A DNA stretch of 54,737 nucleotides, counting the filler, from Sluysia triapertura (Eukaryota), in the NCBI GenBank assembly GCA_046118255.1. It is 4 parts of 4 records of this genome, joined end to end, with 100 filler letters (N's around TTAATTAATTAA, not from the genome) between each part and the next. Parts side by side here need not be neighbours in the genome. Positions count along the whole stretch, not along the records: positions 12,995 to 26,670 come from JBJNIA010026172.1; positions 26,771 to 41,901 come from JBJNIA010238327.1; 2 more parts are not named here. The stretch is one strand, 5' to 3'. Of the stretch, positions 3,540 to 39,700 are shown piece by piece; within the stretch, counting starts at the first letter, position 1, and each line of letters starts with the position of its first letter. Below the pieces are notes generated by a model, which saw only the letters and a program-made list of their open reading frames with translations, searched no databases and was not told where the DNA came from. Made by a program: the position numbers and the translations under genes.

Positions 3540-3542
<3 letters not shown>

Positions 3543-3591
<49 letters not shown>

Positions 3592-3602
3592 TATTATTAT
3601 TG
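3543..3602. repeat. (TTA)n microsatellite
   Basis: Near-perfect TTA tandem run. Confidence 0.95.
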
Positions 3603-6600
3603 TAAAAATTAAAAAAGGTTTTGTGTTAAAAGAATTTGAATGTGTCTACATGAACTCTTAATCTCTGATAGTAACTTCGTCGAAATTTCTCTGTTTTATG
3701 GTATGCCTTACATGATTTGAGCTTTAAAACTTTATCTGAAAATGCAAATCAAGATTCAAGAGATTAAATTATTAATATCAATATACTCTGTATCGCTATA
3801 ATAATTCTAATTTATATGGAGGTATAATTTGTTATTAATGTACACTTCAAGTGATATCTATACTCTATATATTACATTTACCTTATCTGGAGGTATAAAT
3901 TCGAATACTCGTCTCAATTATTCGAGATAGAAGTGCTTATAATTTTATTCCTTAAAAATCGTATATGAATTCAGTTCCTACTAAACCTTGATTAATTATG
4001 TATAATTAATTTTATTTGTACTCTATTCAATTTTATTTTTAATACTTTATTTTAATTTAATAATAATTCTAATCTTTTATATTTTATTTATACAACTTTA
4101 ACTTTAAGATTTTAATTTTGCTTTATATTAATAATCTCAGTAAATTTTATTAATCAATAATCTTTCTAGTTTCAATTACTCTGGTAGACTCTATAAATTT
4201 ATTTTAACAATCGAATTTTTGGGTGTTAAATAAGTTTGAGTTATGTGATTTTATAATTTTTTGTAAGAAATTAGTTTTATCTTATTTATCTTTGATAGCC
4301 GAGGATTATGAATATCACAAACGTTCTTAATTAACAAGAGAATAGACTGTATGAAGAGTACGTAATAGAATGGATTTATATTGATGCGATAAAAATAATG
4401 ATTGCAAAAGTTGTTATTGACATGGTTTGAAAGATCTTGAAGATGTATTTGAGTAACAATAACTAGAAAGATAGCATAAAAGAATTTGATTGTGTGAAAT
4501 ATAAAGTGTTCTCAGTGGAAATTTAAAATTATTAAGATAACATTTATAATTCTGATTGGAATTAGATAAACTTTAGTGAAGTATTTCATTTGTTTATAAG
4601 TTACTTTATCATATTCAATGTTAAAAGGATGATAATGATAAATAAAATTAGCATAAAATTGACTAAAACTAATCACGGTTTTGGAAGAAATTAATGACTG
4701 TTGTAGTCCAAGAAAATAGTTAGCAAAGTGATCACCTCGGAATCCATGAATATGACCATTCCAAGCCGAACAGTAGGTTGGATAGTAGCTACATAATCCG
4801 TGTGACATTCCCACTTTGAAAGGAACAAAACTTTTTGCACTAAGACAAAATTTAAAATCTATAAAATCAAAACTGAAAATTTGGGTTATAACATGATCAC
4901 ATTTAACGAAAACCACAGAAAAAGCACAAATTCGTTTTCCTATCTGTGAACAGGTTAAAGTTGTGAAACTGAATCATTCATTAAACTGATATTATCTAAG
5001 TTTTTAAAATCATTATTATGATGAGTAGAAATTCTGATAAAAAGAAAATCCAAGCAATCTCTTTTGATTTTCTTGGGACAAACTTTGAAATTGAAAATGA
5101 TCAAGAGTCGGTCAGACTCTTTAGAATAACTACTAACACTACGTATTACATGAATGTAATTCTGTAGAACATTTGTATTTACAACACTTTATAATCGTTG
5201 ACAAACATATTTGTTAAAGCTAGTGGTAACAGTAGATTTTTTACTAATTGTCATAATTTGAAAACTTGATAAACATTTAGTAAAGGTTTCGTGCAAACCA
5301 AAATATCAACAATGAAGGTTATACAAAACATTAAATAACACTGATAAAGCTTCAATGTTTGAAAAATAGCAATTTGTTTCACACATCACCAAAATGATTC
5401 GAATAACACCAGCCGACTTGAAAACATCACATCAAAACTCACTATCTTCTGCAATTCTATCAAAAATTTTATAAAGATAAAGTATAACATATTGCACAAG
5501 TTTTGTGTGAGCACTGTCTGAAACAGTTTCATTGATTGGCACTATTTTCCATTAATTTTGAAAAATTTCTTGAAAATAAGTATCTTAATTACTTAATGTT
5601 AGCTTGTAAGCCTGAAACAATGAATCATATCTTTTGATGACAATATTGGTCGAAAATCCTTCTTGAAAGAGAAACATAACTTCATAAGTCCAATTTTACT
5701 TTTCACCAGCTTTAAAAATTTTGGACATTTTAAAAAAAAACAAAATTTTAACATTTTTTAAAATGTGAAATATTAAAACAAAAACTTATAATAAATACAA
5801 ATTATAATGTACACAAAAGTTATTCTTTTTCTTAACACAATGCATACATTGTACATTTATACATTATATACTTTATAATACAATCTTTAACTAAATTTAT
5901 CACAAAACTTATAGCATTAAAAGGTTTTACAAAGAGTCCTATTTCAACATTTTTAAAATATAAACATCTACATAATAAATTAGAATTTCAGGCGTGTTGC
6001 CAAAGTGGACGAAGGAAGCAATATCAACAAGAACACGTATGATATAATTTGTAGATTACTATAATTTTATATATTAATGATTCAGTTATTATGAATTTTG
6101 TAAGTTGAGTGAAATGTGATAAAGTTGTGAGGTGGATGAAATGTTTATGAATGAGGTTGTAGTTTTGCTTATGTTTATTTATGTGTTTAACAACAAAAAT
6201 GAGGTGTACAGCTGTGGCACTACAATGCCCAATTACTAGAGTCATTAATCACTTTTATTTAGATAATGCTTTATGTGAAAGTGAATTTTCATGTGATTAA
6301 GAAAAATTGCAAAGATGTTTTAAGAGGGTTATTGTTTTATAGGAAATTTGTAATCTAAGGGTTTATGTTATGACATATGGAACTTAATGTGTTGTGAATG
6401 GTGCATTTAATTTATTTCTGTTTTATGTGGATAATGTAATATGCAACTTTGAATTATTAGGTGAACCTTTATTTTTATTTAGTTAAACCAAAAAACCAAT
6501 ATCTTACCTTGTAACAAAAGAATTAAAGTGTAATCAGTTAATTATTACGCGAATGTGATTTTTTTGGTAAATTTTGCTTCGATAGTAATCGCTAAATTTG

Positions 6601-7525
6601 TTGGGTTATCATTTTCGCTTCGACAGAGATCGCTAAAGTTGTTTAAAGTTGTTTAATAAATTTTGCTACAATGGAGATCGTTTAAATTGTTTGTTCCAAT
6701 AAGGATTGGTAAAAAATGTGTCCAACCGTTAAATTGTTCTTGTTATTATACTTTTCTGGTTTATTAATGAAGATAGCAAAATAACATAACAAATAATTAA
6801 TATTATTGTCAACTAAGTATAAATAATTATAAGATAAAATTAATAATACATGAAATTCATTATCAATATAAATAGTTAGAACACAAAATTTATTATTGAT
6901 ATACAAGATTTGCCAATAACTATAAGATACAATTATTAGTTTAATACACAAAATTTATTATTTAATTACTAAATAAGTTGTTAAATTACTGATACATAAG
7001 GTATTATTATTATTAATATTAACATTATAATTGGTTTTTTGGTTTTATATGATTTTACTTTTAATTTTTTTATTTGTTAATTTTATGCAATCTTAAATTA
7101 ATCTTTGTCGATTACAATGCTTTTAAATATTACAATACTTCTATCTATTCTATCTCATCTCTTATTTAAGTTATAATGTTATTAAGATATAATGTTATTA
7201 AATTTTAATTGTACGTCATCTTTATTTAATTCTAATTTAATACGATTTATTTTATTTTAAAACAATGAAGTCTAATGTTTATAAATTTTGATTTCTCATT
7301 GTCTCTATTTAATCTCAATTTAAGTTAATTATTATTTATAGTTTCAATTTCAATAATTGTTATTCGCTATTAAATTTTGATTTCATAATATTCTTAAATA
7401 ATCTCAATTTAAGATAATTTTAAAGCATTATAATCGTAATAATTATCAATTTAAATTTACAAATTTTACATATTATCTTATATTTTATTATTAAATTGAA
7501 AATTATGTTGAAAGGATTTATATTA

Positions 7526-7526
<1 letters not shown>

Positions 7527-7590
<64 letters not shown>
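7527..7590. repeat. (TTA)n microsatellite
   Basis: TTA tandem run. Confidence 0.95.
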
Positions 7591-7591
<1 letters not shown>

Positions 7592-8548
7592 GTTTTAATT
7601 TTTTTGTTTCAATGTTTAGAGATCAAAAAGTTAAATTTTCTTTAATATTTTATAATTACAAAAAAAATCCATTATTTTTTACTATATGGTTTTGAAACAT
7701 ATTTGAATATTTTGTGATATCCAGAGCTTTAAGTATAGTTTTAAACATTTATAATTATTAAAATTACATTAATATTTGCTATACAATGTAATGTAATGTG
7801 AATTTTCTTTTTATTCCATTAGAAAATACGATAATTTACGTGCTATTAAATGGATAAATTCATTTTTTGATAAATTTATCTAATGAATTTAATTTAATTT
7901 TTACACTATTATCTTTAGATCTGATTAATTAATTTTAAAATATGTTCTTCGAAATCTTATTATTTTTTAATTTTATTATTATAATAATCACTTATTATAA
8001 TTATTACTTTTATTACTATTATAATTTATTATTATCACAATAATAAAAAATCCGTAATACGATAGAAGTTAGTATTAGAAGTAAGTATTTTAATAACACA
8101 AAATTAATAAAAATTACCTAGTTACAAAAGCGAATATTTACTGTTACTTGATATCTAATTTAATGATATCCAACTTAAGAGGAACACTTGAATCGATACG
8201 ATAAAAGCAAACCGGACTAAGCATCCTGCAAATGAAGATGTTAAAATTTATAGAACCAGAAACTCCATTTAAGAACACTGCTACTTAATTTTGAAGTGGT
8301 TACGAATCCATGATTCTGCTTTTACCTGAATAAAGAAGAAAAGAAATAGAACTAAAGAAAAAATGCTCATTAATGTTACATATAATGATGTTACTAGTGT
8401 TTTTCATTATGGTGTTGAATATTGTGAAGGTTGTAAAGGTTTATGGGGGCTGTGTTCTGGTATTTTTGTACTGAGTCTAAAATTTGTTGTTTGAGTATTG
8501 TAATTTGTGTGCAGTAAAAATTTTACTGATATTATTTTTATCTAGTCT

Positions 8549-12894: not shown

Positions 12895-12994
12895 NNNNNN
12901 NNNNNNNNNNNNNNNNNNNNNNNNNNNNNNNNNNNNNNTTAATTAATTAANNNNNNNNNNNNNNNNNNNNNNNNNNNNNNNNNNNNNNNNNNNN
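12895..12994. other. Artificial contig linker (N44-TTAATTAATTAA-N44)
   Basis: The same 100-bp construct occurs three times; the 12-mer puts stop codons in all six frames. Confidence 0.95.
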
Positions 12995-18579: not shown

Positions 18580-19007
18580 ATTACTAAATAGAAACATGAA
18601 TTTATCTACGTTTACATTGTTAGATATAAGTTGTTGTTCCTTCATTTACGTCCACATTGTTAGACATCAATATTACTTTATCATTACCAGCATTATTAAG
18701 TAGACATGCGACTTTATCTACCTTTACTTTATTAAACATCTAGATTAATTTATCTTTATTTGGATTATTAAGTAGAATTATGGCTTTATGTACATTGACT
18801 TTGCTAAATATCTAGATTACATTGTCTTTATTTACACTACAAAATAGTAATGTGGCTTTACGTACATTTACTTTGTTAAGCATTAAGATTACACTACCTT
18901 TATTTACACTATTAAATAGAAATATAATTTTATCTACATTTACTTTATTAAACATCAATACTACAATAACTTTATCTACAATACTAAATAGAAATATAAT
19001 TTTATAA
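18580..19007. repeat. Degenerate tandem repeat, 36-bp subunit with 72-bp higher-order period
   Basis: ACTTT(A/G)(T/C)TAA..AT recurs about every 72 bp (~18726, 18799, 18870, 18942), alternating with TTTATTTACACTA-type subunits. Confidence 0.8.
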
Positions 19008-20940: not shown

Positions 20941-23880
20941 TAATTGTACAATAAAATAACAAAGACAAATTTGATATTTTAATATTTGTCATAGATAGAT
21001 AGAAATATAAGTAGGACTAGCGAAGGTAAAGACAACATAGTAAATTCAACACTCTGACATAATCATTATAAACACATACGTAAACAAACTTCAACTCAAC
21101 TTAACACAAATATTAAAAACCAACAAACAACATACAACACAAATCAAAATGAAAGAAATTTTCACATACCATTATCACAATAATGATAACAATACTTATA
21201 TTAACATTTAAACACAACTATCATCTAAAATTTAATATTATTTTTATAATATTAAACATTATCGTCATCGTATTATTGTTATTTTTTTATTCTTCGATTT
21301 TTATTACCTCCATTTGTATGTTTTATAAGTGCTTCATTGACTGACACACATTCATTATAATTCTGTTTTAATGAATTATTTAAATAATTCTTCGTACTTT
21401 ATATAGAGAAAATTATTTTCCATTCTGGAATAAATTTCAAACAACACCTTAATTAATTTTTCAAATAATAACATACAAAATAGTAGCATAAAACAATTTT
21501 AATCTTTCGCTGATAAAATTTATGTTATAAGACTCTTTCAAGAAGTCTTATTTGTTACGGTGAACTTCGCAGTCTCAATGATGAAATAATCTGCAAAATA
21601 AATAACTGCTCAAAAAACGTTTAAAATAAATATTTCTTAAATTGAAGTAACTTAGTTTTTCACTTAAGTACTTCATAATATTTCAGATATTTTATTATTA
21701 TTTTAAGAAAATGTTCGTATCATTAATGTTTGTGGACGGCTTTATGTTTTTATTATATTTAATAAAGTTATAAAATTTTAATGTTTCTTTAGCATAAAAA
21801 ATTTAATAAAAATTTTATCTATTTGTTTAAAAAGTTTAATAATTAACTTAACAAAGATTAACAAATTTATAACAAACAAATATTTTTTATTAAAAAACAA
21901 AAGAAACAATATGAAAACACACATGCAAAGTTAGATGTAGGTGGATGATATCCTTCAATAACTGTGATACGTAAATTACAATCCCCAGACCGGCCACAGT
22001 TGTTTACATTTCAAATGTAAAATATGATTATAATTCATTAATTAATAAAAATAGCAAAAACTGACCAATAATATTAGTTAATTCTACATTTCATATTGTT
22101 GCTAGTTGGAAATATTGATTTTTTACGTATTATATATTATTAAACAGAAAAATGTTTTTGAATATTTTTAATTTTTATCAACTTTTTACTTAATAATAAT
22201 TATTGTTAATAATAATTTTTAAAAATTGTCTTTCGAGAAATTGATCCGACACAAAAAAAACCATGAAAATGTCATTATATTAAGTATGTCGAATGTCTTC
22301 ATAGCATTACTTCAGATGGGGATGTTTTATCGATGTATGTACTTTGAGATTTGTTTCCTAATTTAGCAGTAGAATGATGTATGTACTGTAGATTACTGAT
22401 TGTTCCACACAGACCAAAATTACGACGTATTTTATCATTTGGTTTAGTCTTTATTATAATATTTGAAAATCTTTATTGATAAAATTAATTTAATTTCGTT
22501 AACATTGATGGTTTTGAATGAAAGATGTTGAAAGATTGAGAATTTAAAATGTTTTGAAGTATGACAAATAGTTTTAGTGATGTGAAAAAAAGTAAAAAAA
22601 TTTTAATAATTTTTGAAAAGTAACAAGTGAGTACAAGATTTATAAATAGGAGTAATACTTAACTAAATATGCTAATGAAAAAAACTTCGCTTTAATTATA
22701 ATGATGTTTTAAAGTAATTTTGAATTATGAATTTTTTTGTTGTACTGAATGATTTTATTGCTGACAAAATGTATTGCGATGTTTAAAGTTTTAGTGGTTT
22801 TGTTGGAAAATAGGTAAAATGTTATGGAATGTGGTTTTATGTGCGATATGCTACATTGAATTTGAAATGTTATGAATTAAATTTTTAAGTATATCTTTGA
22901 TGATTTTCGATGTTGAATGTGATTTTGACGTTATGAAATTTTATATTTAGAGTGTTTGAAAGTATTAACAATTATGAAATATTCTGAAGAGTGATTTTGT
23001 TGTGTATTGTTGAAATAAAATTTTTAAAATATTGGGTTGGCCACCACCACTAGTAGCAGGCATACGTCGTAACCTCTGTATGTTCTGTATGTATGTATTT
23101 TCTGTACGTAGTTGTAATGCTACAGATGAATCACTGATGCGATGTAACCGACTTTTTATTATTAATTGTGGCAGTTTTGGTGGTATTTTGTGGTAATTAT
23201 TTCGTTTATTATATTTTATTTATAGGAAATATGTTTAGTAATTCAGTGTTAATTGAATATATTTAACGGAAGCTGCACAGGGCCCAGTCCTGATGGCGGC
23301 CCTTATATAGCCGATGAATGAGAATACATGTGCTCCTTCCGAAAATTTATGTATGCTAATGATATTCTAATCCATGAATTTGCTGTTTGGTGCCATATGG
23401 CGACCTGTCTGAGGCTAGTTATGGCTCTGAATTTAATAATTCTGCGAATATTTTTAATTGTATTTCATTCTTCATTTATTTTCAAATAGAAATAATCGTA
23501 AGATTCATCTAAAAATTCTTTATTCGAATTACTTGGTTTATTTCCCGTACTAAACAAAATACAGCAATACTGTTGTCATAGAAAATATCAATAATTGCCA
23601 TAATTTTATTCAGAACAGACAGTTTTAACAACAAATTTAATGTAACAAAATATTCAAGCTTTTATTGAATCAAAATTTCACTGAAAATTTCTATAAAACA
23701 CCATTTACATATCCGAACGGTTGTTCGAGATGTAAGTTCAACCCCAGTATAGTAAACTCAAAATCAATTCGTCACAATCACAAATCAACAAATCTTAAAT
23801 AAACAAATTACTAAACAAGTTACTTGATACATGCAAAACATAAAGACAGTCATAATTTATAATTACCATAGTTTTACAAT

Positions 23881-24014
23881 CGTTAGGGGTAAAAGGCCTA
23901 AAAGTGCCATTTGGGAAAATTGAATATATTAAAAATGAAAATTGTTAGGCGGGGCTGATAGCTCAGTGGTAGAGCATCGACTGCGCAGACGATGGTCCCG
24001 GGTTCGATCTAACA
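23881..24014 (+). mobile_element. tRNA-containing LTR-like element, copy A (4-bp TSD CAAT)
   Basis: CGTT...AACA ends; CAAT at 23877-23880 and 24015-24018; A box TAGCTCAGTGG and B box GGTTCGATC; 3' part of the tRNA deleted. Confidence 0.85.
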
Positions 24015-24590
24015 CAATTATTATCACAATAATAATTACTATTGTTATAATAATTTTCTGATTGTGACTACTATTGTTGTTATAAGTGTTTTCATTCATT
24101 TATTTCCTTTTCGTATGCATGGGTTTTGGTGCTCAAATTTATGATATATTTACCATTTCTAAAATTCCGTTTCCTGCTTGATATAATTAGATCTACGATG
24201 AACTGACGAAAATTATACCATTTAATAAATTAAACAATTTTTATACGTAAAGTCAAAACATAAATTAAAAAAATTGGTTAAACTTTGAAAACAATTCCCT
24301 AATTAATATAAAAATATTATTAAATTAATTTAAATTAATGAAATTAAAATATCGATATTGGTAACTCTGAAATAAAATGTATGATAATAAAGTTATTGTT
24401 TCTGAAGTTATAGTTTCTGTTTGATAGAAGTTTGATTTGATAAACAAAATTATGGAGATATTTTTTGAAATTTTGAAATTTATTTGACATTTTTTTTCGC
24501 TAGTTTTAAACTGTCAGTTAATCGTTTACCATATGTAGCTACAAGATTTGAATATAATAAAAAGGATAATCATATCTGTTTTTTTAAAAA

Positions 24591-24644
24591 TGCTCAACTT
24601 CGATAGTTGAGGTCTTCAGTGAGAAGTCCCGGCTCAGTCCACAT
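24591..24644 (+). mobile_element. Decayed fragment of the same tRNA-like element
   Basis: CAGTGAGAAGTCCCGGCTCAGTCCA resembles the family core CAGCGAGAGGTCCCGGGTCAGTCCA. Confidence 0.55.
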
Positions 24645-24648
24645 AAAT

Positions 24649-24775
24649 TGTTATACTTCATAAAATGGACTGACCCGGGACCTCTCGCTGCGCAGTTCGA
24701 TGCTCTGCCAACTAAGCTATATTCACTTACTATATTCAATTATACCAAATGGCACCTTAGGCCTATATCCCAACA
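24649..24775 (-). mobile_element. tRNA-containing LTR-like element, copy B (4-bp TSD AAAT)
   Basis: Reverse complement reads TGTTGGGATATAGGCC...GAAGTATAACA; AAAT at 24645-24648 and 24776-24779. Confidence 0.88.
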
Positions 24776-25381
24776 AAATCACTACATTTAAAACCAAATA
24801 ATCATTCTAAGCATGGACATTTGATCAAAGATATATCTGAGATTATTTTAAATTAGACAAATTCGAAAGACAGAAACACAAGAAACAAAACAATTCAGTT
24901 AATAAAACCTTAGTGAGTCTTATTAATGCATTGTTACTTTTCATTTGTTAAATTTCCTTATTGTATTATTTAATATAAAATTGTTGCTCGTTTTACTTAT
25001 GTTGTCTGAATATAATTTAATGGAGCTTTATAAATATTAAAGTTAAATTAAATGTTATTTATTATATAAGAAAAATTACAAAATTTCCTAACAAATCTAA
25101 TATTTTAAGGTTACGAATAATTCTGTAAAATCTATTTCCCTAAAAATTTTAATTAATTTACTATTCAACCTTGCATTGTTCATATCGATTACAAAAATAC
25201 TTACAAAACATTGTAATCTATTTTTTTACTTTTAGAAAATTAACTAATTTAATATTCAATATGTTTTGTTTGTAATTGAAGATAAATTCCTTTGTTCTTA
25301 TCATACATAATTCTGTATTATTGTTAGAAATAGTAAAACACAAATATTATTCTATTTTCGTACAAAAATTTTCTTATTTAT

Positions 25382-25918
25382 TTAAAAGTCATGTAAAAAT
25401 TTCCGAGCACTTGATAATAAAAATTCATAATTTTCGTTTGAAGTTTCATTAATGGTTTGATTCAGAGCTACTTTTTGCCATTTTCCCTATAAAAACATAA
25501 TATTCATTGTAGATTCACTAACATCACTAAAGGTTTGTATTACTCTTCGAATTGATAATTGTGGTTCACAAAATATCGGTACTTCCAAACCAGTTAACTT
25601 ATTCATAAAGTTTAAGTGATCGTTTGCAATCTTGCTTGAATTAATTTTCAATGAATCTTTAGCACAAAAAGATTTGCCCTTTGAAGTACTAGCGTGATTA
25701 TTTCTACTCACGTTATTATAATCAGATTCATTTTCATTATCATAATCATCATTAGTGTTAACTTCTTCATCATAATTATCGTCGTCTTCATCATCATCAT
25801 CATCAAATATCTTTTTCAATGATTTACTAAAAAAATAAATCAATCAATATAGTCAAATAAATTTAAGAATTTACTTTTTATCAAATTTTGAAATTACCGT
25901 TGCATTTCGTCTCTTCAT
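25382..25918 (-). CDS. Candidate 3-exon gene for a ~150-aa acidic protein of unknown function
   Basis: Exons 25918-25875, 25826-25523, 25486-25382 join in frame through GT-AG introns of 48 and 36 nt: MKRRNATVISKFDKNKSLKKIFDDDDDEDDD...QTFSD|GKWQKVAL...FLHDF*. No recognised homology; could be a young pseudogene. Confidence 0.5.
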
Positions 25919-26436
25919 TAGAATTAAATTAATAATTTAAATGATTAAAATTCTAACTCAAATGACCCATATGTGTGCAATCAATGAAATTTGAAATAAA
26001 TTTTTTGTGCTCCTGTGTTAAATGTGTATTAAATGTAGAAAAATGGCATCTAGATCAGTTTTATCAACTATTAAAATAATATGATTGCCATTACTATAAA
26101 ATTTACTTTCATATTTGTTAGACTGAATAAAGTTTCTTACTTGGACGATATTGCAGCAGTTTATTTATGGTCAAATATACATTTTATTTGACAAATATTT
26201 TTATTATAAAGCTACATTCAGGAGAAACCCTATTTAAGCAAAAAGGATGATTGTAAACGAGTTGAATAATGAACGAACTGAATGATAAATAACAATGTAA
26301 AGAATGAGAATGAACGATGTTAACGAAATAATTTATTTAATGATAATAATATTAAGTGAAATCTTTATTTAAATAATAACGAATTGAACATGTTAAAATG
26401 TTTGAATTATAATTTAAAATGTTAACGAAATAATAT

Positions 26437-26579
26437 TATTGGGATATAGGTCTCAGTTGCCTTTGGTATGGTTGACTATAATAGTCTAAAAGTTGTTAGA
26501 CGTGGCTGATAGCTCAGTGGATACAGCAGCGAGAGGTCCCGGGTTCAGTTCTGGTCAGTCCATTTTATGAAGTCTAACA
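26437..26579 (+). mobile_element. tRNA-containing LTR-like element, copy C (4-bp TSD ATAT)
   Basis: TATTGGGATATAGG...GTCTAACA; ATAT at 26433-26436 and 26580-26583; keeps the T-arm, 3' acceptor strand TCAGTCC-A and TTTT; middle of the tRNA deleted. Confidence 0.88.
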
Positions 26580-26670
26580 ATATGATGAACCACAAAAATA
26601 TAATAGGAATGACTAATTTTAATGAAATAAATAGTTATAATATACTATATTCAATGATGAGCCTAATATA

Positions 26671-26770
26671 NNNNNNNNNNNNNNNNNNNNNNNNNNNNNN
26701 NNNNNNNNNNNNNNTTAATTAATTAANNNNNNNNNNNNNNNNNNNNNNNNNNNNNNNNNNNNNNNNNNNN
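26671..26770. other. Artificial contig linker
   Basis: N44-TTAATTAATTAA-N44. Confidence 0.95.
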
Positions 26771-26847
26771 AGGAGAAACATGAGGTTCCTTCACGAAACC
26801 CATGGGCTCGAAGGGTTCCTAGAAGTATAAAAGGTTGAAGACCCCTG
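26771..26847. mobile_element. Terminus of a hAT-type MITE, cut by the gap
   Basis: Ends in GGTTGAAGACCCCTG, the reverse complement of a CAGGGGTCTTCAACC hAT/Charlie-style TIR. Confidence 0.55.
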
Positions 26848-26860
26848 ATATATTTAATTA

Positions 26861-27860
26861 AAAAAGCGGAAACAATTATTGCCTATTGAAATTGGACAAA
26901 TTTTGGCCTATAGAGATGCAAATTTGGGAATAAGAGAAATTGGACGTTTCATTAACGGAAATGCAAGCACAATCAGTCGATTTCTTCAAGATCCGAGAAT
27001 TATGACAAGAAAATAAGAAGAGGGCAGAAACCAAAGTTGATATCGAGAGACAAAAGAAGCATTCTTCGCAACGTCAATGACAAAAATATGTCTCCAAGAC
27101 AGATTAAATTGGTCCATTAGCTTCCTTGTTCAATAAGAACTGTCCAAAGGGTTGTAGGCAACTGCCAACACTTAAGATATGAGAAGAGGAAGCCTAAACC
27201 GAAACTCACAGCAGCGCACAATTCGGCACGGGTCACCTGAGCACAATTATACGTATCATGGATTTAAAAATGACATAGAATTATATTCAGTGACGAGAAG
27301 AAATTTAATCTTGATGGCCCCTATGGATGCCAGTTTTACTGGTATGACCTGAGAAAGAGTCCATAGTACTTCAAAAAACGTGGATTCGGAGGTGGTTCGA
27401 TGATGGTCTGAGCAGCCTTTGGTTGGAATGTGAAAACAGAAATTGTGTTCTTAGACGGTAAACAAAACTCACAAAAGTATATTCAAATACTCAATGAGTT
27501 CCTCATCCCCGTCACAGGTCAAATTGGAGGCCGAAACTGAATCTTCCAACAAGACAATTGTTCAATCCATTGCTTCGCGGAGACAACTAAATGGTTTGAA
27601 GATAACCAAATTCGGGTTTTGAATTGGCCATTTTGTAACCCTGACTTAAGCCCCATTGAGAACCTCTGGGGTTTACTCGTTCGGAAGGTTTACCGGAATG
27701 GACGCCAATTTAACAATGTAAAGGTTTTGAAAGCAGCCATTCTTTCTGCTTGGGAAGAAATCAGCCTTGAGGAGATGAAAAATCTAGTTAGCTTAATGCC
27801 CAAAAGAATTATGGAAGTCTTAAAGAAGAATGGTGACTTTATTTTTACGTATTTTACGTG
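26861..27860 (+). mobile_element. Tc1/Tc3-like DD34E transposase pseudogene
   Basis: N-terminal HTH region (IREIGRFINGNASTISRFLQDP), IIFSDEKKFNLDGP, GFGGGSMMV, IFQQDN, then 34 residues to WPFCNPDLSPIENLW. Several in-frame stops and a frameshift. The KFNLDGP motif is characteristic of Tc3. Confidence 0.93.
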
Positions 27861-28151
27861 AAATCAATATTTGACGTACATTTTTTCAATTTAAAATTAA
27901 ACTTTTCAAACAATATTTAACTTGCTCATTCACTTCCAATAGAGAAACAGTGAATTAGAAATTTAATTAATTTTTTAAAGTACCTTACATATTTTATTTA
28001 TATTATTTTTGAGACTTTAAAAATTTATTTTATCTTTTTCTAATTTTTAATAAGGATAATAACTTGTGCTATTTATTTCGTTTTGTAAGATATAAATAAA
28101 GCAGATATATGATAATGCCGAAAATGAACTTTGAATAGGATTACCAAATTA

Positions 28152-28644
28152 CAACGCCGGATAAATGGGTGGGCAAACCGGGCGCCTATATAAAAATAAA
28201 ATATTTTTTACATTCATTATTTTTTTAGATTTAACGAATTAAAATCATTAGACATCGATAATTTTTTTCTTTAAACTAACCAAATAAAGGTTACAATGTT
28301 AATTATAATATTGTAAACTATTTACAAACTGATTTTCAAAAAAATTAATTTAATTAACTGTGTTATTGAATTTTTAATAAATCTTGATGCAACAGGAATA
28401 ACCATAACTTACATTCAAAATTCTCGCTCCTTCGTGGCTCAAACTTCAAATACGCTTGTAAGTAAATAACTATTGTATTATTTTTTAAATAAATACATTT
28501 TTTACACACTTCTTTATTGTGTAATTTTGATTTTTTGCCTTTTTTTCTATTTTTTTTAATTCGCAGTAAATTTGTATATTCTTATATAAAAGGGTGCCAA
28601 ATTTTGTTTTGCCCGGTACGCTCAAAATCCTAGATCCGGTATTG
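28152..28644. mobile_element. hAT-type MITE with 8-bp TSD, in an ELOVL intron
   Basis: CCAAATTA duplicated at 28144-28151 and 28645-28652; imperfect TIR CAACGCCGGAT / ATCCGGTATTG; subterminal GGGCAAA / TTTGCCC. Confidence 0.85.
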
Positions 28645-28809
28645 CCAAATTAGCTACAAATATTTGAATTTAAATAATGAAAAAATAAAATTGGTAAATT
28701 ATAACTAATATAAATTTAGAAATTTATTATTCGAAAGACGTTTCATTGTTCATAATTAAAAAAACACTATATTACTAATTGATTTATATTATTAATTGAT
28801 ATATTTCAG

Positions 28810-29141
28810 GTAGTTTTGTTACTATTCCATTTCTATTGAATTCTGGTGTTCATGTATGCATGTATTTTTACTACGGCATGGCAGCATTAGGTCCACGATT
28901 TCGTAAATATTTATTCTGGAAACAATATTTAACAACATTGCAAATATTACAATTTGTAACGGTCTTAATTCATGGTATGTACATTTGGCGAATTGAATGC
29001 AATTGTGCGAAGATGTTACTACTTCCTATTATGGGAAATACATTTGTATTTTTAATATTATTTCTAAATTTTTATATACAAACTTACTCAAAAAAAGATC
29101 GAATTATTGAAATTAAAGCGGATAATGTTAAAAAAGAATAA
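28810..29141 (+). CDS. ELOVL: Very-long-chain fatty acid elongase (ELO/GNS1/SUR4 family), last coding exon
   Basis: TTTCAG acceptor ending 28809; LNSGVHVCMYFYYGMAALGP, KYLFWKQYLTTLQILQF and LFLNFYIQTY motifs; basic C-terminus; AATAAA around the stop. Upstream exons not found on this contig. Confidence 0.93.
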
Positions 29142-31412
29142 AAGAAATAAATTCTAAATATAATCAGCTACTAACATTGAAATGTTTAAATATTTATTTT
29201 AAAATTATTAATAATATTTTATTTATTAAAGTACATTTTATTTATTTAAAATACACTTTAGTTTCGAATGTTCAATGAAAACGATGTGTTATTTGTAAAA
29301 TTGAAATCAGTTATGACAATCTTTATATTATATAATAATGATTCAATTAAATTGTCTTTTAATAATTGTTGTCAACTTTTTCTTATTGGTTGATTATAAT
29401 TAACAAATAAAATGCTTGCTTAATATTACAATTTTATATATAACTTTGGATTATACATGGCTGATTTTACATTTTATATGCAATTTTTGTGCAACTTTAG
29501 ATGATCCGTTTAGTTTCTTTATTTAATATATAGGCGTTCCGTTTTTAAATAAAATAAATTTTATCTAAATAAATGTTTTAATTACTTATGTTTCTACAGA
29601 AACTTATTCGAGATAAAGGTTTAAGATATCTATAATTGATCATTTTGATGTAAATGAAACAGATTTAGTTGAAATTTACAGAATTATAAATAAGGATATA
29701 TTTCTGATCTTAGTTGTTTGCAGTATTAATTAGTTTTAAATAATGATAATTTATAAATTATAAAATCATATTATCTTGTGTATGTGAACGAAGAGGCTTT
29801 ATATTGATTTAATTAGTATTATACAATTTTGTCGAAATTACAGTTGCTTCATGTATAACATTGAAAAAGAGTAAATGTGTTAGGGTTTGTCGTATGCTAA
29901 GTAATTAAGAAAATGAACACATTTCTTTATTTACAAAAATATTTCACTTAAAATTAAAAATAGAAAAAATTATTGAAAGAATTCTTTTTTTGTGACTTGT
30001 AATTCTCAGTAAAATGCATTTTTATTTTTATTTGCCAAATGAAATTTATTCGTATGTCATAGATTTGTCATCTATGGTTTATAATGTACAGATTTATATT
30101 TTATTTTGTTTTACTCATTGTAAGAAACTGATGAAAACAACTTTTGGTTAAATTTATACATATTAGTCAAATTTATATATAGCATGCCGTAGTACACACA
30201 GATAGTATTTAATTTTAAGTAAACACGATAAATAAAGGTTAAGTTTTAAAATTCAGTCATTAAATTTACAAATATAAATAAATAAGACAGTCTTGCCATT
30301 TTTATTTGAAAATATTGAACAAATATTTTAAGTTGTATTTATATGACAGCTACAATAAATTAGTTGACATCTGTGTTAAGGTTTCATTAACTATTTTAGT
30401 AAATTAATTTTGAATTTTTGATATAATTTGAAATTAAAAAATTGAAATAAAGTTAAAATAAATAAATGTTCTTAATCTTTGGTATTTCGATGCTTATTTA
30501 GTGATTACGTATTTCCTCAGACTGAAATAGTTTTAAGAATGCATTATAACTTTATAACTTTATATTTTATAACTTTATTAAGAACTTTTAATATACATTA
30601 TAAGCTTATTTTAATTTTCTTTTGTAAACATAAGCTTATGTTTATTTAGATCACACTACTTCTTAAAAAAGCACTTCTATTTTTGTACAAATAATTCTTA
30701 GATAATTTATGCATATATCAAATCATAGAAATTTTATACTCATAGTTTATGGGAATAGATAGTGAAATTTATTTTACTATAAAGATAATCAATTAATTTT
30801 AATTGTGGAATTTATTAGAATTTACAACTTCACACTATAATTTACACTAAGGCTAAGCTTAAGAATATATTTTGACAAATTTTTTGTTTAAATTATTGGA
30901 AATATTATTTTTTGTTTAATTAGACTTGTAATGATTTTAAAACTTTCATCGAAAATATTTCAAAAAAATTTAAGGTTAACATTTCAATTATTAATTTTTA
31001 TTTACATAAATAAAACATTTTTTATTTTTTAAATTATTTTGTTCAAGTATTTATAATTTTTTTATTAATTTTGCTATTATTTTATGTACTTTAACAAATT
31101 TTTATAAAAAAATTTGTTTGTTTTATTATTAGGCAAAATATTTTAAAAATTTATTAAGTACAAATGTTTTTTCTTGATATAATATGATAGTCAGCGTTTT
31201 ATATGATTTTTTATGAATAAGTTCTCATTTAATAAAGAGTCTGCTCTAATTTTTTTTGTTAAATTGCTTACAATATCTTCAATATCTTAATTTTCTAAAG
31301 AAAGTTCAAGCTTGCAAGACTGTATGACACTTCGTATGTGACCTTGAAATATAATCACTCAATATATTATAAACGTTTCGAACGATTAGAAATATTTAGG
31401 AGAATGCACTGA

Positions 31413-31414
<2 letters not shown>

Positions 31415-31465
<51 letters not shown>
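31415..31465. repeat. (AAT)n microsatellite
   Basis: AAT tandem run. Confidence 0.95.
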
Positions 31466-32407
31466 TCACATTTTATTATCAGCGACGTTTTAATAAAGTT
31501 TGTTATTTTTACCATAACGATGATGGTTCTGTAGTTATAAATTAATTCAAAAAATTATTTATCTCAAAAATTCAGAAGACGATGAAGATATATTACACAA
31601 AATGAACTTTAATAACTATACATAATTTGAATATTAAGAATTTCTTGATAAGAATGTCAATATTTTAAATAAGATTTAAAGTTACCTTTAAACTAGCTGC
31701 AAACAATTAAAGATCTTAGTTGTGTTTTCACTCTTGGATTAAACAAGAGAAAACCTAATAAAGAATTAACAGATTCTTCCAAAAAACGAATAGATTTAAG
31801 ACAATAATCAATTTCATAATGAACTACGTTTGACGTTAGTTTATCCGACTCCGAATATTTTATTCCACAAAAAAGATCTGGACTGATTAGAAAATATTCT
31901 ATTATTTTATTTTGCATAAAATTTAATAATCTAATGGATATTTAATAATAATTATTATTATTATCAATTAATTTGGTGGATACACTACTTATTTTTATAA
32001 CTAAACATTTAAACAAAATTCGGAATCTCAATATAATTTTTAAAATATCACAATATTCTTTTACAATAATAATCAAATATTCTTTAATAATAATGTCTTC
32101 AATACTTTTTAAAAGTTACAAATCTATAACTATAAAATTCTAAAACTTACTACCAGGAGTGATACAACTCAATATCAATAAATGTTGATGTCTGTATTAA
32201 CAACAATAAAATAGTAAAAAGCGCAAGTTACTAACCTTCATAAATACCCTTATTGTGTGTTTTAATAAGCTGCTGAAGAATCAACTTCAATCTCACCATT
32301 TTCCACAAATGAATTGAGGTAGGTCCTTAAAGCTTGTTTTAAATAGCTTTCTTCTATTTCTGTCTTGTTATTTCGTTATCTTTTTCTCATTTTGCTAAAA
32401 AAAATAT

Positions 32408-32541
32408 TGTTAGACTTCATAAAATGGACTGACCGGCACCTCTTGCTGCGCAGTTCGATGCTCTACCACTGAGCTATCAGCCCCGTCTAACAATTTTATT
32501 TTATTATAGTCAATTTTACCAATTAGACCTATATCCCAGCA
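32408..32541 (-). mobile_element. tRNA-containing LTR-like element, copy D
   Basis: Reverse complement reads TGCTGGGATATAGG...TGTTAGACGGGGCTGATAGCTCAGTGGTAGAGC...TCAGTCCATTTTATGAAGTCTAACA. The TSD is imperfect (ATAT on one side, one base short on the other). Confidence 0.85.
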
Positions 32542-32662
32542 TATTGAAATGTTTTGTTCTTCTTTTATGTGTGACTGTGCAATAATGAGTTCAAAAAATT
32601 AAAATTTAATGCGTGAAGTGTGTAAAGCTAACCTTACGGTTCTTTTAAAATAAATATATGTA

Positions 32663-33757
32663 AAGTGATCTCCGAATATCCCTGGATACTATTTAGAAAA
32701 TGCAAAAAAGAAAATAAATAAAGAATCTTCCTGTTGACTACTAAAATAAAAAAGGAGCACGGACGGACAGAATGAACCTTTGAACATTGGTTTAAAAATA
32801 AAAGGGTCCCTGAAATTCGAGTGTTTTAAAAAGCAAAGATGTGGTACTCCATCGAATAATTTATTGAAATATTTTTTTGTAAAATTTTTACTATTGAATG
32901 TGTCAACACCAATGTCAAAGAAATTAAAAGTAGGACAAAGCACAGAGCATCTATCTCAATAAATTCTCAAACCAGTCTTTCAGTGTTCACGGTGTATGTA
33001 CAAAACGGGGAGGGTACCTCAAAAGGATTGCCACAAAAGGCAATACCGTTATTAGATAATGATTCTTGTCATCCATATGAAAACAGACAATGGCCTTATA
33101 ACCTATGGATCAAAAAGTTATCTCTTTAATGAAACGACATTATCGTAATGATCTCCTTAGAAGCTTTTGCAGCGAGAATGACGATTTAATGAATTTATGG
33201 AAAAAATGACAACGTTGGATGCAATACATGGAGCTGTTAAATCTTGGAACAAAATTAAACCAATGACACTAGTTCGATCGTAGTTGAAAATTTTGCCAAA
33301 TGCAGAAAGTAATGTTTCGGACTCTCTCGAACCTGAGATATGTAACATTTCAGAATTATGTGAACTGATGAAAAATTTAAATGGCTTTGAAAATTTTGAT
33401 GACCAAAATATTTAGAAATTTGATGCATCTGATCCAGGATTCTAGGATTCAAATCCAAATGAAAATGAAAGTGAGGTGGAAGATATTACCATTCGTATTA
33501 GTCACGACAGAGCACTGACTTCTGTCGATACTTTACTAGAATACGTCGATGTAATATCTTTAAGAAAAAGTCGATATGATATTAAAACGTCATCGAGAAA
33601 TTCACTTAAACAACCCAACATTACCGATTTTTTAATAAAGTATTGAATGTATTTTCATTGTTTTGTATTATACTAGTATTTTTGTATTATTATCTTGCGG
33701 ATTATCCGTGATTTTCGAGTATCCCCATCATTAGCCCGGATAATCGGTAATTTACTG
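32663..33757 (+). mobile_element. Internally deleted Tigger/pogo (Jerky-like DDE) transposon
   Basis: KNLPVDY*NKKGA, GLPQKAIPLLDNDSCHP, PMDQ, AVKSWNKIKPMTLVRS*LKILP and KQPNITDF motifs; right TIR CGGATAATCGGTAATTTACTG followed by TA; decayed left TIR near 32663. Confidence 0.85.
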
Positions 33758-36700
33758 TATTAGTTTGCATATTTACATATTTACATCAATGACTGTTGCA
33801 CAATGTAAATAAACAGACATAACACAAAGATTCTGTTTGTTATGAAAAATATAAATATGGATGTAAACATAAAATAAATGGTTTTTGTATTTATTTAATA
33901 AAAAATGAAAATTATGTTTAGATCTTAGAAAAACCATTTAACGAAAACCAACTGGTAAGAGTTTTCTGAAAATAAACGAGAAAATTGATGAATTTACACA
34001 CGTACTCATTTACAATGTTCAGTTTATTATAAAGCAATACTTTTTCATTAATCAATGTTACAAACATACTTTCTGAACTCATTTATGGATACAAAACAAA
34101 CAGTGATTTCAAAAAATTATAAATTATATTTTTAAATAATTTTATAATAAAATTATATATTTAAGCCGAATAACTATGTACTTTTAATTAGATTGTTTTT
34201 CGTTATTTTAAATTCATCAGAGTTATTATTTAAGTGAGAGTTTGGCATTATTTATACAGTGATCTATGAAACAAATATTGATCATGTACANNNNNNNNNN
34301 NNNNNNNNNNNNNNNNNNNNNNNNNNNNNNNNNNNNNNNNNNNNNNNNNNNNNNNNNNNNNNNNNNNNNNNNNNNNNNNNNNNNNNNNNNNNNNNNNNNN
34401 NNNNNNNNNNNNNNNNNNNNNNNNNNNNNNNNNNNNNNNNNNNNNNNNNNNNNNNNNAAGCTACCTAAGTAGATGTAAGTATTAAGAAAATTAATTATAA
34501 AATAATCAAAAATGTGTATTTTTATTACAGTACTGATAGTCAGGTTCAGGTTAGTTTTAGAACGAAATACGTCAATTTGAATAAATGGAAAAGAAACCCA
34601 ATTGTAATGAACAATAGACCGCAAAAGGTTTAAGATGCCACTTATATTATTTATAATATCATTTTCTTTTGCATTCTGTAAAAAATATCAAATATAAAAA
34701 TGGAAGTTGTTGTCTGAAAATGAATAAAAGATGATAATAATAGTAATTAAAAGTAATTGATAATAATAATTATTATTATTAGTTTATTTTTGATTATAGA
34801 TACAATTTTGTTAACCATCTAATTATGTTTTTATTCTAAAAATATAATTTATGATAATATATCAAATAAGTAGTGCTATGATAACTTTCCACATAACAGT
34901 TCAATTATTATACAAAATTTTAGAACTCTTACTGATCTAAAATTGACTCTGAGTTATCTATAACCCTTAATATTTCAATGTAAATATGTTTCACACAAAA
35001 TTAAAACAAAATTAATTAATATTTTATTTGTTGTTTAAAATTTAAAAATAATTTCATAATTAAATAAAATTTTAAAATTACATATTTAATTTTCTGAAAT
35101 TCAATTTTTGAACAATGTTTTTTATATCTTTTTATTAAAATATTTTATACAAACAGTTTCAGTTTTATTTAAAATTTCAAAATAAAATACGCATTAAAAA
35201 TAATCCATTAAAACAAATTCCTTTATATCAAATAATTAACTTATTAAAGCATATTATAGATAAACGAAAATAAAATATATACATTAAATTGTCTAATAGA
35301 ATAATAATATAATTATATATAAATTACACTATGCAAGAAAATAGTGTAACACCATGACAGGTAACAATAAATCAATTAAAATAAAGCAAAAACCAAAACT
35401 TGTTAACAATCACTTACTTCTACATTTTACATATTCTCATACAAATAAATTCACTTCTCTAAATTCAAAATAAAATAAAAAATATTATTGTTTTCATTTG
35501 CATAATGCTATTATTGACGTTATTATATCTTGTCATTATTAATGTTACCTTATTTTGGCTTGTTATTATCATTCTGTTAATATTATTCTCCGCAATTTTT
35601 ATTTTTATCAAATATTGTTAACTTATCACTACCAAAATTGTTAAATTTCTTATTCTTTACATTAAATATGTTTATTAACAGAAACCTTACCTTGAATATA
35701 TATCATAACAAAATCAATTGTATCTGTTTATTTTAAGAAAAGATTTTAGTCCAATATTAGACAAACCTGGATTATATAAATTAAATATTCTGAAAATCCT
35801 AAAAATTATCAATATTTTCCATTAAGAAATAATGAAATTTTACTCTATTTTTGTTGCTGTAAAACTAAATTTAAACTACATAGTAAATGTCAAATCAAAG
35901 AAATTCTAATTTATCGATCGTACTGAATTTCAATTAGGACTTGATGTCAGAAACATTACAAAATTAATCTTTCTTTAATGTAAAACTATTTTTCTAAAAA
36001 TGACATATATTACGAAGGTGAGGATATATTTCGAAAGTGATATTGGCATGAAGCTAAAACCTTGAAACCTGAATTAGAAAATATATGTATCTTGTCATAT
36101 TGATTATTTTTTAACTCGGGTAATAACATCTAAACTAATGAATAACTTATTTGTACCGTTATTATTGATTATTTTGTGTGCGTATTCCCTCAGTTTACGA
36201 GAATATCAAGACATCATTGTCAATAATTATATAATTACAAAAATTGGGATTATTATCAATATTATTAATGATAAATGCTTATTTCCACATATAAGTTTCC
36301 GGAACTTTTATACCATCGTTAATAATACAGCATTATATATTGCCTATCATTTTCATAATCATGCATTTTATGATGCGAAGTTAAGAAAGGTAGCAATACT
36401 GTACTTCATTGTAAAGTTGATCCTCTTTATAATGAAGAGAAAGTTGTGCATTTTATTTTTGAAGTTTTTGTATTCGTGCCAATAATTTTGATAGGCTTTT
36501 CAAAATTTTAAAATTAGCTACTTTTAACTTATATGTGATGTGCTTGGCAAGACGAAGCTGAATATCTAATAAATAATTCATCTTCTGTAGTTACCAATGA
36601 GGTATACGAATGTTATATGATTCGAAAAGATTTTTTGAAATTTGATGTTTTATATTGTTTGTTTTTATGGTCATATAACCATCTAAAATAATAAAAACAT

Positions 36701-39700
36701 TTCTCCAGACCTTAAGTGACAATGATTTCCACTTGTAAACATTAAACTACAACTTTGTGCCAATCAATGAAACGTTTTTAATGATTAAATCTCTATTTTG
36801 TTCAGTGTAATTGAAATATTTTGGCCATTAATTTATTTTATTTTACAAAGTTGTAATAAATGTAAATTTGAGAGTTGACTTTGATTTTGATTTACTTCTC
36901 ATTGTCATTGAAATTGTGTTTAAGTTTTCAATCTGATTAAATTAATAATAATAATAATAATATTAATAATAATAATAATATTAATGAATTAATTTCCGGA
37001 TATATAAAATCTAGTTAAAAAATTATCTCAACTTAAAATATAGTCTTTAGTAATATTATTGGTTTCATTAAATATTGTAAATTCATTTATTAAAATTGAT
37101 TTTAAGATAAAAACTGAATATTGTTTTTATTTTTATTACATCTTCATCGAAAAAATAATATTAAATATAATAATTATTAAATAATCAATTTAATAAAAAA
37201 TAAACAATTAAGGTAAATATGTAATAAACATAAATTGTTACCTAAAGTAAACAATTGTTTTTTATTATTAAAACTTTCTTGTATAATTTTTCTAACAAAT
37301 AAATATTTATTATTTGATTTAAAGATAAATATTTGTTTAAAATATTTGGATAAAATATTTCTGGAGAGTAAACTTAGTAAAACATCAGAAATAAAGATTA
37401 TTATTTATTATTTATTTTGTTTATCCACGTCAAAATTAAAGTCATGTTTCGATTTTCTTAAATTCCATTAAAAATATGGGGAAAAATTAACACTTTTAGT
37501 GATTTTTATAAACCTTTAATTACTTTGTTAATATTTTGTACAATTTTGAATGCATTTTTTGTTTGTGAATTAATTATTAATTGTTAATAAATATAATTGA
37601 CATAATGTATTAAAGATCTCGTTTTCGAATGACAATTTAAATAATTTAAGCTTCATTTTAATTATATTAATCTTTAAGCATTCTGTTTTAATTGTAACAT
37701 TATAAATATTTTTAATTTACAATTTTTGCTTTATTTAACAAAATCGATAAAATATTTTATGCAATTAAAACTTTTTAAATAAATGTGCATTTAAAGAATC
37801 GATAATGGCATAAATGAGAAATAATTCAATAAGAAACATTTAATGATTATCAAGTGTTGTATCAAGTGTTGCATACAATATTTTTTATTATATGTATAAA
37901 AATCTTAATCCAAATTTAATTCGAATATAAAAAATTGAATTTATGAGTCATTAGTTTAATTAAAGAAAAATAATCATAACTTTATTGTTTCTAATATAAA
38001 CAATTAATTTCGATTATTTTTAAACTTCTTAGTCTAAAACGATACATTTTTAACTTTACATCTTGAATTATTGAATGTAACGATGAATTATTGAATTTTT
38101 AACTTTACATAATATTGAATGATGGTAAAAATGATATTGCGACAAGTATTAATTGTGATGAAAATACAAAATAAAAAGTAATGAAATTTTAGCTTTAATG
38201 TTTAATTAATAAATCGTTTAAATGTCCTCTTTGTGATTTATGAATTGTATATGCATAAACAATGTTTATTTTCGAATGTTTTTATTTTACATTACGAAGA
38301 GTGAGTCACAGTTAGTTCAAGATATTAATGTATTACTGAACTTGTGTATGCGTGCGAGTATAACCTTTCTGATTGGTTATTCCATGAATCATTTGTATTT
38401 ATGAATGTAATAACTGATGTTCTGATGCAAATCTGTTGAATGCACAATTGATTCAAATAAAGCTATTATAATACTAGATAATACATCAAAATCCTACATT
38501 AATTATGACTAAAAATAAATTTAAGAAATTTAACTTACCAATAAAGTTAAATTTTAATTATTCTTTGACTTAGAATTTTTATTGATTTTAGTAAATAATT
38601 AAACAATTCATGAATTTATACTATTTTAATACAAGAATAATTTGAGTATAAAATATTATACACACAAATAGCAATGTTAAGAGTAAGATATACACTAAAC
38701 AGTAGAATAAAAGTTTTATCAGGTAAAATCCGCCCCATAGGGTTGCCTTTAACCCTTTCAATCCTACCGAATTATATGTCACAATAAATTTTTAATAAAC
38801 ACCGCAAAAAAACGCTATGTAACTTATACTGTCCGGGACATAAATCTCACCAAATTGCATATTAGTGCTTATTATACTAAAAATTAGAGGCAAAGGTCGT
38901 TTAGAAAGGTTTATTTGTATTATATGTTATATATCACAATTGCATCATAAATATATAATATATAATTGTATTATAGATTATATAAGGTTCATGTAAATAC
39001 AATTTGTGTATTGTGATTGGTGTAAAAAAGATGTTAGGTTAATTCTCAGTAATAAGCAATAAGTATGAACATAGTTATATTTCTGTAAAAAAAGTGTGTC
39101 AACACAACCTAGTACACATTGTCAATTCATTTTTAAATTTGCATAATTGAACCGATGTGGGTTTATTTTAAAATAACCAATCACATTATAGTTTAACTGG
39201 TTTTGGAAATTAACATTAATTAAGTTTGATAAAATTAAAACATTTTCAAACAAATTCAATTTTCATATAACTTAAAATGTAAAACTATTCAAATATAATT
39301 AGTTTATTTAAAATAATTTATTTTAGTTTTGAATTTATTTATCTAAACATTGAATTTGTTTTTAAAAAATATTTTATGAATATTATATGAAAATAATAAC
39401 TTGAGAAAATGAGAGGCATGAATAAGTCACTGGAGGTAAAATAATGCTTAATATAATATTAAAAAAAATCAAATAATGTGTAAATAAATAGAGTATACGA
39501 TAATTAATCTTTTCTGTATGTAATTGTATATAATCGAATAATTGTTGTAGCGTTTATTTAATATTAATTCTAAATAATTATCTAATGACACAAATAAGAT
39601 CAATTCATTGGTAGTGCCATTCACTTATTTAAAATACAAACTTAAAAATGTAATAATTTTATTACTTAAAATTTATAAATATTTAAATTTAAAAATAAAA

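Follow-up and report, generated by a model that had tools for sequence, protein, structure and literature searches.

The window analysed here, a stretch of 54,737 nucleotides of Sluysia triapertura, contains four copies of a short element in which a tRNA-like module lies between fixed ends. These copies are rather probably solo long terminal repeats (LTRs) of a new Helenus-type LTR retrotransposon, small and non-autonomous, i.e., a miniature retrotransposon with terminal repeats (TRIM). This would probably be a new and very abundant family, not a new kind of element; the Helenus class was described in 2024. The copies are read as solo LTRs because the order of their parts, namely an upstream part, the tRNA, a T-run and a short tail, is the order found in Helenus LTRs. 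Ends of the TG..CA type and a flanking duplication fixed at 4 bp suggest the work of an enzyme of the integrase family, either a Gypsy-type integrase or a Ginger transposase; the first-pass annotation of this DNA had held the same, and PMC10886601 and PMC2836005 back it.

By analogy with Helenus and Cassandra, RNA polymerase III (Pol III) would start at the tRNA module of the 5' LTR, and the transcript would continue past a leaky run of four T (T4) and across a short internal part as far as the module in the 3' LTR. Reverse transcriptase and integrase would come in trans from a Gypsy-type element, insertion into AT-rich sites would create the 4-bp duplication, and recombination between the two LTRs would leave a single LTR between the duplications. 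The upstream 58–71 bases would then be U3, the tRNA module R and the short tail U5.

Ends, flanking duplications and tRNA-derived module

Pairwise identity among the four copies was 69–85% over aligned columns (all six pairs), and a profile of the four found the same four only in the window at E ≤ 3e-34, the next matches having E values of 0.3 (24617-24642) and 8.6. The four homologous copies of 127–143 bp proposed in the first-pass annotation are thereby confirmed at the positions and on the strands listed in Table 1. They make up about 1% of the window.

An exact 4-bp target site duplication (TSD), and none longer, is present at the homology-defined ends of three of the four copies (CAAT, AAAT/ATTT and ATAT), so that the three perfect and differing duplications noted earlier stand. 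Among 158,783 position pairs of the window, the background of 4-mer matches at such spacings was 1.15%; three or more exact duplications in four copies have a chance probability of 6e-6, and of 5e-4 even at a rate of 5%. The 4-bp matches thus exceed chance (P about 6e-6 for three of four). The flanks of copy 4 match at 3 bp and fit an ATAT which has lost one base.

The right end reads AACA in all copies (TATAACA in copy 2). The left end is exactly TGTT only in copy 2, the others having CGTT, TATT and TGCT, one substitution each and each at a different position. From the four copies, the termini of the family are TGTT-like on the left and TAACA on the right; compared with the ends given in the first-pass annotation, the intact TGTT start holds in copy 2 alone, and the right end of copy 2 is TATAACA. 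The outer ends form an inverted repeat of only 4 bp, with 4–5 of 8 bases matching; this is usual for LTR ends and is no long terminal inverted repeat. A poly(A) or simple-repeat tail was absent from all four copies, as had been stated before, and no tandem array overlapped a copy. Each copy has a private deletion of 8–25 bases, several of them between short microhomologies in the alignment, and the copies are for this reason considered old.

Table 1. Positions of the four copies, their parts and their flanking duplications in the window.
Feature	Position	Strand	Length	Remarks
Copy 1	23881..24014	+	134 bp	box A and box B kept; 3' acceptor strand, T4 and part of tail lost, deletion between short TC microhomologies (alignment)
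TSD of copy 1	23877..23880 (left), 24015-24018 (right)			CAAT
Inner left end, copy 1	23943-23950	+		one change
tRNA module, copy 1	23952..24011	+		anticodon loop with 2-nt GC duplication versus tRNA-Cys(GCA)
Copy 2	24649..24775	-	127 bp	left end intact TGTT; inner left end, tRNA 5' acceptor strand and box B lost; 3' acceptor strand kept
TSD of copy 2	24645..24648, 24776-24779			AAAT on + (ATTT on other strand)
Box A, copy 2	24708-24719
T4, copy 2	24662-24665
Copy 3	26437..26579	+	143 bp	11-nt gap in D/anticodon region
TSD of copy 3	26433..26436 (left), 26580-26583 (right)			ATAT
Inner left end, copy 3	26494-26501	+
Box A, copy 3	26510-26520
Box B, copy 3	26542-26547			degenerate
T4, copy 3	26563-26566
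Copy 4	32408..32541	-	134 bp	box B deleted between CCGG microhomologies
Flanks of copy 4	32404-32407			3-bp match only: ATAT versus AATA
Inner left end, copy 4	32485..32492	-	8 nt	TGTTAGAC; perfect inverted repeat of right end
tRNA module, copy 4	32425..32483	-		acceptor stem and D arm fold tRNA-like; nearest tRNA-Cys(GCA)
Box A, copy 4	32466-32476
T4, copy 4	32421-32424

The tRNA-like part starts at element position 59–72 in the three copies which keep its 5' end; its internal position behind an upstream stretch, claimed in the first-pass annotation, is confirmed, the stretch being 58–71 bases long. Box A is present in all copies and box B in two, and TTTT follows directly after the acceptor stem in three. 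The D stem is paired in 16 of 16 cells across the copies. ARAGORN called no tRNA in the window, and with the Rfam tRNA model copy 4 scored 24.2 bits (E 0.0037 for 181 bases) and copy 1 18 bits, at a cut-off of 29 bits. The anticodon loop contains a 2-nt duplication in three copies, and in the fourth the region is partly deleted. By these three signs no functional tRNA would be encoded by the module.

When metagenome contigs were scanned for the box A motif, one match appeared, in a contig of 1 kb (L001), where ARAGORN calls a tRNA-Cys(GCA). For every copy, the alignment with this tRNA outscored all of 300 shuffles; in copy 1 the first 24 bases are identical and the anticodon loop differs by the 2-nt GC duplication. 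Since the contig was found with the element's own motif, the likeness is partly one of construction, except for the match of the anticodon arm. As far as sequence comparison goes, the internal module descends from a gene like that of tRNA-Cys(GCA), its anticodon loop having changed. This origin, as well as the inner left end and the very high apparent copy number described below, had no place in the first-pass annotation. The contig L001 was rejected as a further family member; it holds genuine tRNA-Cys genes with no element around them, two with the anticodon GCA at 347-419 and 572-643 (-), 150 bp apart.

Further motif searches gave no matches for the right end in metagenome or viral contigs, and none for the inner left end and the T arm in prokaryote genomes. 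The left-end motif matched a viral contig (L002) over 22 nt without a tRNA part, which was judged to be chance, as was the single match of an Rfam scan of the whole window. Folding of the four whole copies was not more stable than that of shuffled sequences, with z between -1.2 and +0.3; for copy 4, the inner unit taken alone had a z of -1.9.

Abundance and the inner left end

Contigs of one public sequencing run (X1) were aligned to positions 23800-26640 at 80% likeness, which placed 9,616 of 6,252,256 records; the resulting tables had 748 loose-end rows, six of them listed, and 124 joints, 15 of them listed. Depth was 16–18 on unique contigs and 786,000–870,000 when summed over the tRNA module. 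Division by 16–25 yields, roughly, 31,000–54,000 for the module and 25,000–40,000 for the right end, and at the density of the window, with four copies in 54 kb, the 735 Mb of the run would contain about 54,500 if that total equals the genome size. All these figures are orders of magnitude only, because summed depth is no copy number.

The depth of the 5' segment was about one third of that of the tRNA module, probably because the commonest 5' form is like that of copy 4, which lies outside the aligned stretch; at 23938 there are breaks in 167 contigs, whose consensus upstream is like copy 4 (agreement 0.54). Beyond 24009, 72 contigs go on with the T arm, box B, acceptor strand and T4 and end on the right as the copies do (agreement 0.82), which argues that the majority of the family has a complete tRNA frame and that the copies of the window are deletion derivatives. 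Depth over the box B part of copy 1 far exceeds depth over the deleted version of copy 2; going by these contig sequences, most members would seem to have kept box B and a complete acceptor stem. A further 156 contigs break at 24775, where copy 2 has its left end, and continue there into AT-rich sequences unrelated to one another (agreement 0.44). In eleven contigs, three of them among the 15 joints listed, the two sides of copy 1 are connected and the element is missing. Copy 1 is inserted in another repeat with a flank depth of about 7,000, and these joints are therefore likely to be empty paralogous sites. More generally, the flanks of copies 1 and 2 (23800-23880, 24036-24400 and 24780-25100) are repeats, with summed depths of 200–7,900 versus 16–18.

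An inner, second left end occurs at element position 50–58 in copies 3 and 4, where an 8-mer repeats the right end perfectly in inverted orientation (p from shuffles 0.0025 and 0.0021, one observation since the copies are related). At the one base by which copy 1 differs, 98.6% of the contig depth carries the family base; copy 2 is without the inner left end. From there to the tRNA the gap is 9 bases. Taken alone, the inner unit resembles the smallest Helenus LTRs, e.g., Helenus-2_TeGr (PMC10886601). No duplication flanks the inner unit in copies 1, 3 or 4, and since the duplications abut the outer left end, the unit inserted here was the long one. One might speculate that the inner left end is a fossil of an older LTR of ~100 bp, whose U3 was extended later.

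Affiliation and alternative explanations

The Helenus class, which the first-pass annotation had named, does exist: Helenus (TRIMp3) was described by Kojima in 2024 with animal LTRs of 104–323 bp and a 4-bp TSD (PMC10886601), and layout and size range agree with those found here. Its Pol III transcription is predicted, not validated, in that paper. Common to the animal Helenus elements and the present family are the TGT..ACA ends, a unit of LTR size (here 127–143 bp), the 4-bp TSD and solo copies; a short upstream part followed by a tRNA-like module with box A, a GGTTC box B, a T-run and a short tail; and a non-functional anticodon arm in the module. The closest examples, by comparison of layouts by eye, are Helenus-2_TeGr (104 bp), Helenus-2_PiIm, Helenus-1_LAn and Helenus-1_LiLo. 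Three defining features of the class were found, and membership is assigned provisionally.

Differences exist as well. Two-LTR forms, a site where the primer binds (PBS) and a polypurine tract (PPT) are seen in animal Helenus, whereas none of them occurs beside the four copies; the family has a second inner left end and about tenfold the apparent copy number; and its ends, TGTT..TAACA, are nearer to fungal Helenus than to the TGTA..TACA animal families compared (PMC10886601). The host is probably outside the six animal phyla of the Helenus list, in which flatworms do not occur; the supplement of PMC10886601 contains the words 'Platyhelminthes', 'Schmidtea', 'Macrostomum' and 'Cys' nowhere. Two internal motifs of the family matched no Helenus family listed in the available supplement, where line breaks may hide matches. 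Literature extending Helenus/TRIMp3 to further hosts was not found in a search which had most subscription journals outside its range.

Among other TRIMs, Cassandra and Ajax also have a captured small-RNA gene as internal Pol III promoter in the LTR; this is a 5S and not a tRNA gene, Ajax has 5-bp TSDs and Cassandra is a plant element (PMC10886601). The ta-TRIM of taeniid tapeworms (PMC4558846) is a flatworm TRIM with many solo LTRs and a Gypsy-type partner, lennie; its TSDs had 4 bp in 52 of 57 cases, one being ATAT. It differs in that full-length copies with a PBS are known, and neither a tRNA module nor a Pol III promoter is described in the available text. ATAT is a known target of a subgroup of Gypsy elements (PMC5408687).

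Several points weigh against solo LTRs of a Helenus-type TRIM. None of the four copies is part of a two-LTR element, which in animal Helenus has a short internal region and less than about 1.3 kb in total, with the PBS behind the 5' LTR and the PPT in front of the 3' LTR; neighbours on the same strand are 2,422 and 7,632 bp apart with duplications of their own. No PPT lies directly upstream, and no PBS directly downstream, of any copy, which is what is expected for solo LTRs. No autonomous element with the ends of the family was found in the window from the list of motifs. The apparent 25,000–54,000 copies, a rough figure, are about ten times the largest Helenus count, 5,575 LTRs obtained under stricter thresholds than here (PMC10886601). 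The probability that four of four copies are solo is ≤0.11 in three of ten rows for animal Helenus families in Table S3 of that paper and >0.3 in seven; ten of the 11 animal rows were used, Helenus-2_CGi being dropped because its LTRs number fewer than twice its internal count. Solo-only Helenus families are listed there too, and ratios of solo to full TRIM copies reach 111 (PMC13570524). [quoted passage not shown] As to the contigs, no joint listed gives exactly the empty site predicted for copy 1, where the flank is of low complexity; the window itself may derive from run X1; and a collapsed internal region would amount to few contigs, so the contig tables are silent on two-LTR copies and on a free inner unit.

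A decayed Gypsy-type pol region lies at 63-1827 (-), with aspartic protease, reverse transcriptase and the start of RNase H, many stops and frameshifts, and a cut near 80; no LTR with the family's ends is recognizable at this remnant. The partner of a Helenus element would be a Gypsy element with the same PBS. Its presence may be counted in favour of Helenus-type solo LTRs.

The single unit could instead be a MITE-like DNA transposon, moved by a Ginger2-type transposase, which is Gypsy-integrase-like, and carrying a captured tRNA-Cys gene with its T-run. We regard this as unlikely, and as the most serious competitor. Its ancestor would have been the inner unit of ~100 bp with 8-bp inverted repeats, lengthened by use of a cryptic left end 50–60 bp upstream. 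Ginger elements have TGTNR ends and 4-bp TSDs, AT-rich for Ginger2 (PMC2836005), and termini and TSDs of this kind are present here; likewise, MITEs with 16-bp terminal inverted repeats (TIRs) starting with TGTTA and with AT-rich 4-bp TSDs have been described (PMC3845634). The TIRs of Ginger elements are, however, 40–270 bp long (PMC2836005) and those of the MITEs 16 bp (PMC3845634), so at least 16 bp in non-autonomous elements, lengths which are not reached here. The perfect inner inverted repeats in copies 3 and 4, which are not independent, would suit such an origin, whereas the duplications abut the outer left end, with only 4–5 of 8 bases matching the right end, and the inner unit has no flanking duplication in copies 1, 3 and 4. 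All four copies are single units, as are the non-autonomous Ginger2 elements, and the apparent copy number is very high; those elements, however, have 500–650 bp and prefer TATA as target (RTATAY; PMC2836005, PMC3845634), and none of the sites here, four in number, is TATA. No tRNA module is reported for them in the available parts of these papers, and the position of module, T4 and tail is that of Helenus. A tRNA-bearing MITE was not found in the literature, with most subscription journals outside the search, which is a weak point either way.

A related idea, which appears doubtful, is that a unit of 135–150 bp is the whole mobile element, with a tRNA promoter, integrase-type ends, no internal region and tens of thousands of copies, moved as DNA by a Ginger2-type transposase or via head-to-tail arrays, and with an older version of 100 bp nested inside. 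If true, the one-piece unit would represent either a MITE with a tRNA module or a retroelement that is 'LTR-only', and the question of how solo-only Helenus families spread would be reopened. Should no two-LTR form exist, the mode by which this tRNA-carrying unit moves would be a new one.

An ordinary tRNA-Cys-derived short interspersed element (SINE) with acquired 5' sequence, inserted by a long interspersed element, is very improbable. The hallmarks of tRNA SINEs (SINE2) are a tRNA head at the 5' end, a TSD of variable length and a 3' tail. Some of these are given in the introduction of PMC10886601. The tRNA-derived boxes A and B and a copy number within the SINE range would agree with a SINE, and flatworms have tRNA-derived SINEs (PMC2770079). 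Here, however, the tRNA lies 58–71 bp inside, both ends are fixed and TG..CA-like, exact 4-bp TSDs flank three of four copies and there is no tail; the same features bear out the first-pass annotation, which had set the element apart from SINEs. Moreover, T4 follows directly after the tRNA, so the Pol III transcript of a lone copy would omit the upstream part. Least probable of all is a non-autonomous element of another DNA superfamily with 4-bp TSDs, e.g., Sola1. Its hallmark AWWT targets (PMC3845634) would fit three of the four sites (AAAT/ATTT, ATAT and the inferred ATAT of copy 4), but CAAT falls outside AWWT, AWWT-like sites are common at 24% GC, and Sola1 MITEs have TIRs of 28–36 bp starting with GGACC (PMC3845634), no such TIR being present between the TGTT/AACA ends.

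If the copies are solo LTRs of a Helenus-type TRIM, elements of this type would extend to a further animal lineage, probably the flatworms, for which the indications are weak, and their copy number would reach a level typical of SINEs. The family would also seed Pol III promoters throughout the genome and inflate counts of tRNA-Cys pseudogenes. Its apparent abundance makes it a good test case for a point left open in the paper of 2024, namely the drive by Pol III and the Gypsy partner.

Surroundings of the copies

Three nucleotides beyond the TSD of copy 2, at 24617..24641 (+), lies an inverted copy, ~25 nt long, of the 3' part of its tRNA. It shares the box B deletion of copy 2 and forms a hairpin with it (z -7.2), and a contig of run X1 crosses the junction of the two. 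The fragment could be either a duplication by template switch or an older copy hit by copy 2; no TSD for the latter origin was found. As a self-primer site it was rejected, since it sits outside the duplication, which also argues that copy 2 is not a 5' LTR. The only TGG beside any copy, behind copy 2, is part of this fragment. This hairpin also accounts for matches to microRNA and small nucleolar RNA models near 24620, which do not come close to the cut-off. Likewise rejected was the idea that the upstream segment is a shrunken 5' LTR with PBS and PPT: its motif, CA-TT-TGG, is found in two of four copies and was a lead only, the bases after it are AT-rich, vary between copies and do not resemble the 3' end of a tRNA, and unequal LTRs are no product of LTR replication.

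The window has a GC content of 24% and is animal DNA with introns. At 43656-44541 (-) there is a gene for 6-phosphogluconate dehydrogenase with very short introns, one of 33 nt with GT-AG borders at 44425-44457; identity was ≤79% among the 120 matches listed, which are mostly from vertebrates. Very short introns are typical of parasitic flatworms. At 52858-53475 (-) lies a CCR4/CNOT6-like gene's last exon, which has a long tail rich in Asn and His; among 25 candidates its identity was 75–78% to an unnamed protein, 64–67% to Macrostomum lignano and 57–59% to mosquito. The likeness of this exon and the 33-nt intron weakly suggest that the host is a flatworm; protein searches yielded no named relative that is close.

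Other mobile DNA includes a broken transposase of the Tc1/Tc3 type at 26858-27858 (+), between copy 3 and an ELOVL exon, and a possible second Tc1-like piece at 54277-54665, which had no Pfam match. Fragments at 32750-33643 (+), just past copy 4, are presumably pogo/Tigger-like, a label given by eye and unconfirmed by any Pfam match. A tandem array with a period of about 72 bp and 77% identity occupies 18640-19005. The stretches 12895-12994, 26671-26770 and 41902-42001 are gaps of 44 N, 12 bases and 44 N; the 12 bases examined, in one of them, form a six-frame-stop linker, an assembly artefact. A dispersed repeat of 44 bp occurs at 22040-22083 and 48635-48678 (91% identical); it is unrelated to the tRNA-carrying family.

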